Source of the DNA: Candidatus Anstonellaceae archaeon | GTDB taxonomy: Archaea > Micrarchaeota > Micrarchaeia > Anstonellales > Anstonellaceae | Direction: 5' to 3' | Length of the DNA: 64,000 nucleotides | Assembly: GCA_038891055.1 (NCBI GenBank) | Contig: JAWAEU010000001.1 | Span: 1,475-65,474, forward strand | Part shown: piece after piece, positions 61,002 to 62,528 of the stretch | Layout of the letters: every line of letters begins with the position of its first letter | Numbering within the stretch: position 1 is the first letter of the stretch | Notes under the pieces: model-generated | What the model was told of the DNA's origin: nothing | What the model saw: only the letters and a program-made list of their open reading frames with translations | Database searches by the model: none | Position numbers and translations under genes: made by a program

Positions 61002-62528
61002 ACACCAGTTGATCCTGCTGGAGAGTACTGCTATCGGAGTACGACTAAGCCATGCAAGTCAGCTGACCCACTTGGGTTGGCGGCGGACGGCTGAGTAACA
61101 CGTAGTCAATCTGCCCTAAGGATGGGGATAACCTCGGGAAACTGAGGCTAATACCCAATAGCCCATTTATGCTGGAATGCTTAATGGGTAAAATCCCTGG
61201 TGAATTGGAGCCAGTGGGCCTTAGGATGAGACTGCGGCTGATTAGGTAGTTGGTGAGGTAATGGCTCACCAAGCCGATAATCAGTAGGGGCAATGGGAGT
61301 TGGAGCCCCCAGAAGGGCACTGAGACAAGGGCCCTAGTCCTACGGGATGCAGCAGGCGCGAAAATTCTGCAATGGGCGAAAGCCTGACAGAGGTACTCCG
61401 AGTGGTGGAGGCCTTGTGCTTCCATCTTTTGGCTAATCTAAAAAGTTAGCCGAATAAGATCTGGGTAAAGCTCGTGCCAGCCGCCATGCTGTGCATGCAC
61501 CAGCATAGCACGGTAAGCGGTAATACGAGTAGAGCGAGTGGTACTCACGAATATTGGGTCTAAAGAGTCCGTAGCGGGCCTATTAAGTCTGTTGTGAAAT
61601 CTGAGGGCTTAACCTCTCAGGCGTGCAGCAGATACTGATAGGCTTGGGAATGGGGGAGGCCAGAAGTACTTGCGGGGTAGCGGTAAAATGCTATAATCCT
61701 GCAAGGACTCCCAGTGGCGAAGGCGTCTGGCCAAAACATATCCGACCGTGAGGGACGAAGGCTAGGAGAACGAATCGGATTAGATACCCGAGTAGCCCTA
61801 GCAGTAAATTATGCGGACTGTGGTGTTGCAACAACTTAGGGTTGTTGCAGTGCTGTAGCGTAGGTGTTAAGTCCGCCACCTGGGGAGTACGGCCGCAAGG
61901 TTGAAACTTAAAGGAATTGGCGGGGGAGCACCACAAGGCGTGGATGCTGCGGTTCAATTGGATACAACGCCGGGAACATTACTAGGAGAGACGGCACTAT
62001 GATGGCCAGACTGAAGATCTTGCCTGAGGAGCCGAGAGGTGCTGCATGGCCATCGTCAGCTCGTGGTGCGAACTGTCAGGTTAAGTCCTGCAACGAGCGA
62101 GACCCTCATCTGCTGTTGCTAACTCTATCGCCAGATAGGGTGCAAACTGCAGAGACTGCCCGCGTTAAGTGGGAGGAAGGAGAGGGCGACGATAGGTCAG
62201 TATGGCCCTAATCTCTCTAGGCTACACGTGGCATACAATGCCCATGACAATGGGTTGCCACCCCGAGAGGGGAAGCTAATCCCCCAAACATGGGCTCAGT
62301 TCAGATTGAGGGTTGCAACTCACCCTCATGAAGCTGGAATGCCTAGTAATCGCTTGTCATCATCGAGCGGTGAATACGTCCCCGCTCCTTGCACACACCG
62401 CCCGTCAAGTCACCCAAACCGGGTTTTGGTGAGGCTGCCTATAGTTGGGGCAGACAAACCAAAATTTGGTGAGGGGGGCTAAGTCGTAACAAGGTATCCG
62501 TAGGGGAACCTGCGGATAGATCACCTCC
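61002..62528 (+). rRNA. 16S ribosomal RNA (archaeal)
   Basis: 5' end …ACACCAGTTGATCCTGCTGGAG…CTAAGCCATGCAAGTC, then GTGCCAGCCGCC…GCGGTAATAC, …GGATTAGATACCC…, …TGCACACACCGCCCGTCA…, and 3' end GGATCACCTCC. Flanked by a 13-15-bp inverted repeat (60923-60937 / 62578-62590) forming the processing stem. Confidence 0.9.

Follow-up and report, generated by a model that had tools for sequence, protein, structure and literature searches.

The 16S rRNA gene in a 64,000-nt stretch of DNA from Candidatus Anstonellaceae archaeon (contig JAWAEU010000001.1, positions 1,475 to 65,474; the whole stretch is referred to below as the window) is interrupted in its 530 loop by a 31-nt insert, which is very probably a short, hairpin-type archaeal bulge-helix-bulge (BHB) intron. 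It lacks an open reading frame (ORF) and lies between E. coli positions 526 and 527 of the 16S rRNA of this member of the Micrarchaeia (DPANN). The host gene and the insert are as follows (here and below, a slash marks a splice site).

61002..62529, + strand: 16S rRNA gene, host of the intron (Rfam RF01959, SSU_rRNA_archaea; 1431.6 bits, full length, model positions 1-1478).
61486..61516, + strand: putative 31-nt BHB mini-intron at E. coli C526/G527, with predicted splice sites 61485/61486 and 61516/61517; the consensus 530 loop is regained upon its removal, in one register only.

The region 61474-61526 of the window reads GTGCCAGCCGCC-ATGCTGTGCATGCACCAGCATAGCACGGTAA-GCGGTAATAC. In the Rfam SSU_rRNA_archaea alignment, 32 nt are found between GCCGC and GCGGUAA versus 1 nt in the consensus, and it is at this 32-nt position that the invariant model stretch ...GUGCCAGCCGC[C]GCGGUAAUAC... 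is interrupted. Deletion of 61486-61516 yields the canonical GTGCCAGCCGCCGCGGTAATAC, the register of the deletion being unique. Since the footprint of primer 515F spans E. coli positions 515-533, the insert is placed between C526 and G527. The initial annotation, made from the sequence of the window before this analysis, had reported an insertion within the conserved 515F/530-loop sequence and had proposed a covariance-model alignment as a check; both the alignment to the archaeal small-subunit (SSU) model, in which these nucleotides fall inside the 530 loop, and the unique deletion register confirm it. Helix 18 (h18) was described there as intact around the insert, and its stem 61470-61476/61524-61530 is indeed present. 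The gene is the sole 16S gene within the window, and the insert at 526 is its only intron. A second, smaller length excess relative to the Rfam consensus was observed at 61197-61220 (approximately 15-20 extra nt in a hairpin loop region, model position ~195), and looks like an ordinary variable-region extension rather than an intron.

Evidence for an intron comes from the fold at its junctions. The initial annotation had suggested folding the region in search of a BHB, and a motif of the 3-4-3 type was found at both junctions. Its elements are listed below together with their conservation among 44 distinct inserts that occupy the same site in other genomes.

61480..61483, + strand: exon strand (GCCG) of the central BHB helix, pairing with 61511-61514; 4/4 pairs in 44/44 distinct inserts.
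61511..61514, + strand: intron strand (CGGU) of the central BHB helix, which mimics the exon CGGU at 61518-61521.
61484..61486, + strand: 5' bulge CC/A, 3 nt, holding the predicted 5' splice site; the first intron base is A in 44/44 inserts.
61515..61517, + strand: 3' bulge AA/G, 3 nt, holding the predicted 3' splice site; across inserts it reads A-[A/C/U] before the junction and G after it.
61487..61494, + strand: 5' strand of intron helix B (UGCUGUGC), forming 8 bp with 61503-61510; both-side changes occur at all 8 aligned pairs.
61503..61510, + strand: 3' strand of intron helix B (GCAUAGCA); 61495-61502 form the loop (8 nt).
61470..61478, + strand: 5' strand of the outer exon-exon helix, comprising the h18 stem 61470-61476 and CC at 61477-61478; 100% paired, with 3 covarying pairs.
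61519..61530, + strand: 3' strand of the outer helix, comprising GG at 61519-61520 and the h18 stem 61524-61530.

The junctions, which were set independently by the 16S-model alignment, fall after the second base of each bulge. Helix B, the inner helix, adjoins the 5' bulge and consists of 8 strongly covarying base pairs, whereas the outer helix opens with an A.C mismatch (A61479 opposite C61518), followed by 2-4 bp and then by the h18 stem; the motif is therefore strict at helix B and slightly relaxed at the outer helix. Only 33 of 200,000 composition-matched random 31-mers placed at the site give a 4-bp central helix together with a helix B of at least 4 bp in register.

Several other descriptions of the insert were considered and rejected. 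In the minimum free energy (MFE) structure predicted for 61468-61534 (-33.2 kcal/mol, z = -5.4), one exon half is paired with the other (GCCGC/GCGGU), and the intron is left as a long, 12-bp hairpin. As the functional structure, however, it fails across the family: two of its intron pairs cannot form in 23/44 and 34/44 inserts, and no double changes are seen. The 6-bp hairpin AUGCUG/CAGCAU reported in the initial annotation is present (61486-61491/61501-61506), and some relatives have comparable proximal hairpins; the conserved and covarying register, however, is that of the BHB-adjacent 8-bp helix 61487-61494/61503-61510. Likewise, the duplicated GGTAA pointed out there does exist as a CGGTAA repeat; rather than a relic of duplication, it is the intron strand CGGU of the central BHB helix followed by the AA of the 3' bulge. 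Descent of the insert from a tandem duplication at the 515F site that has since degenerated (intron CCAGCAUAGCACGGUAA versus exon CCAGCCGCCGCGGUAA) was dismissed on similar grounds, as only CGGUA[ACU] is conserved family-wide and is explained by the BHB. Group I introns are characterized by a conserved P1-P9 catalytic core and are typically longer than 200 nt; the insert is just 31 nt long, and no Rfam intron family matches the window at the gathering threshold.

A comparison with sibling genomes, also proposed at the outset, revealed homologous inserts at the same site in 46 other genomes. The pattern GTGCCAGCMGCC-N15-45-GCGGTAATAC was searched for in one genome per GTDB species, resulting in 57 loci, 11 of which were set aside: seven are chance matches outside rRNA and four are micro-contigs of concatenated primers in bacterial assemblies. 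The latter (L008, L011, L029, and L054; 379-400 nt), composed of 515F/806R primers and found in Virgibacillus, Streptomyces, and Serratia assemblies, are amplicon-primer contamination deposited as genome contigs. The remaining 46 loci lie in 16S genes of DPANN archaea, each interrupted precisely at the E. coli 526 site by an insert of 26-45 nt; 44 of the inserts are distinct. By label, these genes belong to Micrarchaeota/Micrarchaeia/Anstonellaceae (29 genes), Aenigmatarchaeota (7), Woesearchaeota (1), Nanoarchaeota (1), and unclassified archaea (8).

Every insert starts with A, finishes with CGG[U/C]A[A/C/U], and can form a 4/4 central helix with the exon GCCG. In the BHB register, helix B has on average 5.1 contiguous bp versus at most 2.5 in registers other than the shortened same helix, and it reaches at least 4 bp in 29/44 distinct inserts versus 2.9% of shuffled interiors. 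When the BHB model is imposed on the MAFFT alignment, 92.9% of cells are paired versus 30-42% with the partners slid, and the covariation score is 0.339 versus no more than 0.078 in the slid controls. Apart from the junction motif, the length (26-45 nt) and sequence of the inserts vary freely. Since the BHB pairs covary while the MFE alternative of the window is not conserved, selection preserves a substrate for the endonuclease and not a particular hairpin. The intron is nearly fixed in large Micrarchaeota clades and evolves with the host clade rather than occurring sporadically.

These homologs leave next to no probability to the insert being an assembly or sequencing artefact, or the mark of a dead rRNA pseudogene. 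Metagenome assemblies tend to become chimeric in conserved rRNA regions, and two Logan contigs of the same population (L058 from SRR30574052 and L059 from SRR27730023; 99.5 and 100% identity, respectively, to window positions 52422-61154) both stop at approximately 61153, that is, inside the 5' part of the 16S gene and before the intron. Nevertheless, the identical insert is found in the independently assembled L026 (JAVZXS010000023.1, from the Micrarchaeia metagenome-assembled genome JZ-3_201705_bins_117), which aligns with the window over 7.1 kb at 98.7% identity; its 91 mismatches over this distance mark it as an independent strain, and the match also places the window in the Micrarchaeia. 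In addition, the 46 homologous cases come from separate projects, and the rest of the gene, the only 16S copy in the window, scores as a full-length, well-paired 16S rRNA.

Both forms of the site were considered in metagenomes. A lineage-specific metagenome scan for intron-less or spliced forms of the exact 16S of the window gave zero matches. A scan based on the commonest Micrarchaeota h18 variant yielded 52 loci, approximately 33 with the intron and approximately 19 without it. Most of the intron-less genes represent other clades, being at most 88% identical to the intron-bearing genes, and several are carried by long DNA contigs of as much as 743 kb; the intron is therefore not universal in Micrarchaeota. 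The intron-bearing clades (88% clusters 13, 14, 18, and 19) comprise approximately 53 sequences with the intron, some of which are duplicate copies of one contig; they include DNA contigs ranging from multi-kb to several hundred kb. Only three sequences within these clades lack the intron (L066, L108, and L073). All three derive from a single series of samples (Ga0068940, Ga0068944, and Ga0068967), are 1.3-1.6 kb long and nearly all 16S, and run unbroken across the 526 junction. Compared with its DNA relatives L083, L076, and L098, L073 carries ~1.8% substitutions (98.2% identity), and the 30-nt insert at 526 is precisely missing from it, as are two further mini-inserts of these relatives (48 and 43 nt), both of which fit the BHB geometry. 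L066 (Ga0068940_1011056, 1-200) is circularly permuted: the last 30 nt of 16S are followed by a 144-nt spacer and then by the 16S 5' end. The spacer folds as a long leader/trailer stem with a 7-nt closing loop, and 7 nt is the length of the loop left by BHB cleavage and ligation, for which the processing stem of the window predicts GAAUAA/A. L066 thus bears the hallmarks of an intermediate in the form of circular pre-16S rRNA, and looks like one assembled from a Micrarchaeota relative within a metagenome collection. The simplest reading suggested by these features is that L066, L073, and L108 may represent assembled RNA from which the intron has been spliced out.

The same relatives contain further 16S insertions. 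An extra BHB-type mini-intron of 48 nt near E. coli position ~1070 was observed in L083 (2454-4103), L076, and L098, whereas a 43-nt mini-intron near ~1370 is present in L083 and L076 and missing from the near-identical L098. Larger insertions occupy one common site in L024 (155 nt) and L057 (666 nt). When compared with the window exon sequence, near-full 16S genes among the fetched loci have between 0 and 7 insertions that are 15 nt or longer, most having 1-7, although these counts do not reflect prevalence because the loci were picked for the 526 insert or a related h18 stem. The insertions are either small (25-50 nt) or large (600-900 nt), with a 45-50-nt insert near 1070 being frequent, and the conserved insertion sites appear to include the Thermoproteales loci ~781, 908-919, 1205-1213, and 1391.

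The initial annotation had left open whether the insert is a mini-intron (or its relic) or an expansion retained in the ribosome. The first option is backed by the BHB in 44 distinct inserts, by covariation, and by the RNA-like contigs without the insert; the second is disfavoured. C526 is part of the 505-507/524-526 pseudoknot, and G530 lies at the ribosomal decoding centre. A genuine expansion segment, protruding from the 530 loop of the mature small subunit as an extra hairpin, would thus split C526 from G527 in the immediate vicinity of G530. It is true that the insert folds stably, is conserved between strains, and is nearly fixed in several clades, and that the rRNAs of DPANN and of the Candidate Phyla Radiation (CPR) are known for unusual insertions. 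Yet the features under constraint, namely a 4-bp helix with the exon and two 3-nt junction bulges, are what a splicing endonuclease needs and not what a structural hairpin needs, and close relatives or RNA-like contigs exist precisely without the insert, so that we regard retention as extremely unlikely.

The proposed mechanism is as follows. In the precursor, the 3' end of the intron (CGGU) would displace the identical exon CGGU and pair with the exon GCCG as the 4-bp central helix, while the 8-bp intron helix and the h18 exon helix would frame the two 3-nt bulges in which the junctions lie. EndA, the tRNA-splicing endonuclease, would cut this BHB conformer after C61485 and A61516, the second base of each bulge, and the RtcB ligase would join the exons, generating the canonical 530 loop, and would probably also circularise the excised intron. 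The archaeal splicing endonuclease is known to cut BHB motifs in tRNA, rRNA introns, and processing stems, the products being ligated by RtcB (PMC4496867), and the epsilon2 splicing endonuclease of a member of the Micrarchaeota (ARMAN-2) cuts BHB motifs of the strict as well as the relaxed type in vitro (PMC3239211). We infer cleavage and ligation in vivo, as well as the identity of the enzymes, from what is observed directly, namely a BHB geometry that is conserved and covaries across the family and that recurs in two other substrates in the window.

One of these substrates is a tRNA intron, and the other is the processing stem of the 16S rRNA.

28092..28224, - strand: tRNA-Met(CAU) gene interrupted at the canonical position 37/38 by a 57-nt intron (~28128-28184); Rfam tRNA match, 133 nt, 55.6 bits.
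60921..60957, + strand: 5' strand of the 16S processing stem (central GUUC at 60937-60940, bulge AAA at 60941-60943).
62556..62592, + strand: 3' strand of the 16S processing stem (central GAAU at 62570-62573, bulge AAA at 62574-62576).

The BHB of the tRNA-Met intron is formed by exon CUCA and intron UGAG, with bulges UA/A and AA/A and the 5-bp anticodon stem as the outer helix. ARAGORN missed this intron-containing gene and reported two tRNAs only in the window. The leader/trailer cofold of the 16S processing stem (-62.8 kcal/mol) consists of an outer helix (60921-60936/62577-62592) and an inner helix (60944-60957/62556-62569), and we interpret the 7x7 internal loop between them as a 3-4-3 BHB. 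Cleavage and ligation at this stem are predicted to give a circular pre-16S rRNA with the junction A62575-A60943 and a 7-nt loop. As the tRNA-Met intron and the processing stem share the 3-4-3 geometry, the organism appears to rely on BHB cleavage and ligation for the maturation of both tRNA and rRNA.

A number of observations weigh against splicing as proposed here. Computed stabilities favour the MFE fold with paired exon halves (-33.2 kcal/mol) over the BHB fold (-24.2 kcal/mol). The A.C mismatch starts the outer helix beside the 3' bulge, where the motif is slightly relaxed, and uninterrupted pairing of helix B in the BHB register extends over no more than 3 bp in 15/44 distinct inserts (1 bp in L003 and L031). 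The RNA-like contigs are at best 98.2-99.2% identical to intron-bearing genes, never 100%, and could be intron-less alleles. Neither EndA nor RtcB was found among the 40 of 56 ORFs of the 64-kb window that were scanned against Pfam; the BHBs of the tRNA intron and of the processing stem, along with the biochemistry of the ARMAN-2 enzyme, point only indirectly to a host that encodes them. Splicing of the 31-nt insert in this organism itself is deduced from the features described above.

The same scan bears on another explanation, in which the insert is excised and the two halves of 16S are left unligated, resulting in a fragmented 16S rRNA. Excision without religation is known for the intervening sequences of bacterial rRNA, and a ligase gene was not seen among the scanned ORFs. 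We consider this outcome quite improbable because the RNA-like contigs L066, L073, and L108 are continuous across the junction. Besides, RtcB naturally acts on the products of BHB cleavage, and archaea require it for tRNA introns, one of which is present here too; a nick within the 530 pseudoknot would probably be harmful as well.

A more far-reaching proposal can be made for the function of the spliced intron. The intron at 526 might be ancient, vertically inherited in several DPANN phyla, and kept because it is useful rather than merely tolerated, acting as a built-in checkpoint of ribosome assembly. The intron CGGUAA, which mimics the exon CGGUAA, would then sequester GCCG (522-525), and formation of the 530-loop pseudoknot would be blocked until the endonuclease and the ligase have acted. 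If true, small-subunit maturation would be coupled to the tRNA-splicing machinery. We view this proposal as speculative and rather unlikely.

The closest known counterparts of the intron are the short (<50 nt) hairpin BHB introns in the 16S genes of Thermoproteales, Desulfurococcales, and Aigarchaeota (Jay and Inskeep, 2015; PMC4496867). Similarly to these, the insert is shorter than 50 nt (31 nt in the window, 26-45 nt in the family), forms a hairpin, lacks ORFs, has a BHB core with conserved bases at the junction, and interrupts a highly conserved stretch that serves as a "universal" primer site; in relatives, it also occurs alongside further 16S insertions, both small ones and large ones (600-900 nt). 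However, the 13 catalogued 16S loci (374, 548, 722, 781, 803, 901, 908, 919, 978, 1093, 1205, 1213, and 1391; PMC4496867) do not include 526, which is therefore a new locus for this intron class. Moreover, the catalogued introns occur sporadically in Crenarchaeota and Aigarchaeota, whereas the hosts of the 526 intron are DPANN archaea in which it is nearly fixed and evolves with the clade.

The geometry matches that of archaeal tRNA introns at 37/38: the motif is 3-4-3, four bases of the 5' exon pair with the intron just before the 3' bulge, and the cut falls after the second bulge base. The differences are that the host is an rRNA and that the outer helix is h18 of 16S, opening with an A.C mismatch, in place of the anticodon stem. 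BHB motifs are also described in archaeal rRNA processing stems, where they give rise to circular pre-16S and pre-23S rRNAs (bioRxiv 10.64898/2026.03.23.713588). The motif and the enzymes are the same; the processing stem of the window has a perfect BHB, and L066 resembles such a circle. At those stems, however, the excised and ligated product is the rRNA, whereas here a 31-nt intron would be excised and the mature 530 loop ligated.

Within the phylum, insertions and introns have been reported for rRNA genes of ARM-1 and ARMAN-2 (large insertions at E. coli 1093; PMC8784108) and of Mia14 (PMC5498576), as well as group I introns in Micrarchaeota rRNA genes (PMC6125680); the 16S insertions among them are either large and at 1093 or introns of unspecified type, and none corresponds to the 526 mini-intron. 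They share the phylum and the gene with the 526 intron and illustrate how intron-rich such genes are, but unlike it they are hundreds of nucleotides long, some are ORF-bearing or self-splicing, and they reside at 1093, SSU/1498, and large-subunit (LSU) sites. With respect to location, the 526 intron is similar to the group I introns that occupy SSU position 516 in eukaryotic nuclear rDNA (e.g., Nae.S516 of Naegleria), which lie in the same 530-loop neighbourhood. The latter are eukaryotic ribozymes hundreds of nucleotides long, in contrast to a 31-nt intron of the protein-spliced BHB type with no Rfam intron match.

That short hairpin introns of archaeal rRNA are removed by BHB splicing is already established, and the 526 intron does not represent a new kind of element. 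What appears to be new is the locus 526, in the 530 loop of the decoding centre and in the target of primers 515F/519, and the DPANN host clades. No description of an intron in the 530 loop or 515F site of DPANN archaea was found in full-text literature searches, whose coverage is incomplete, and an earlier description is possible. The intron is not a one-off: three or four phyla are represented among the species-level DPANN genomes (at least 46) that have it at the same position, and approximately 33 further metagenome contigs have it there as well.

The practical consequence concerns amplicon surveys. The initial annotation had expected the lineage to be invisible to 515F, and this is borne out in silico, since no 515F site within 3 mismatches exists anywhere in the window; the 15-mer CAGCMGCCGCGGTAA also has no site in the 16S insert region. 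The intron thus destroys the target of the primer on which 16S surveys rely most often. Surveys of DNA amplicons with 515F (the V4 and V4-V5 sets of the Earth Microbiome Project, EMP) or Arch519-type primers are thus predicted to miss intron-bearing lineages, and degenerate primer bases would not fix the loss of the site. Such a loss would give a concrete reason for the under-detection of these lineages, which RNA-based surveys should recover. The signature GCCGCC-A...CGGUA[ACU]-GCGG can be used for the screening of assemblies and for the design of intron-spanning or intron-specific primers.

The gene content of the window is archaeal and includes FtsZ, RadA, L7Ae, Nop5, aIF5B, and archaeal RNase P RNA. 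The rRNA genes are unlinked, being 9-24 kb apart and on differing strands: 5S at 25838-25950 (-), 23S at 49837-52745 (-), and 16S at 61002-62529 (+). The RNase P RNA (29829-30048, +) is 220 nt long versus 288 model positions and scores 95.2 bits versus a gathering threshold of 84; 4 nt stand in for each of two segments missing from inside the model (46 and 35 positions). Starting ~190 nt past the 16S gene, a CRISPR-like array (~62718-63093) contains six ~30-nt repeats (GTTAAAAAAGACCTATAGTAGGATTGTGAC). Just ~85% of this region can be aligned with strain L026, which suggests different spacers. The ORF beside the array (63151-63759, -) encodes an HFX_2341-like N-terminal domain and a helix-turn-helix (HTH) domain.

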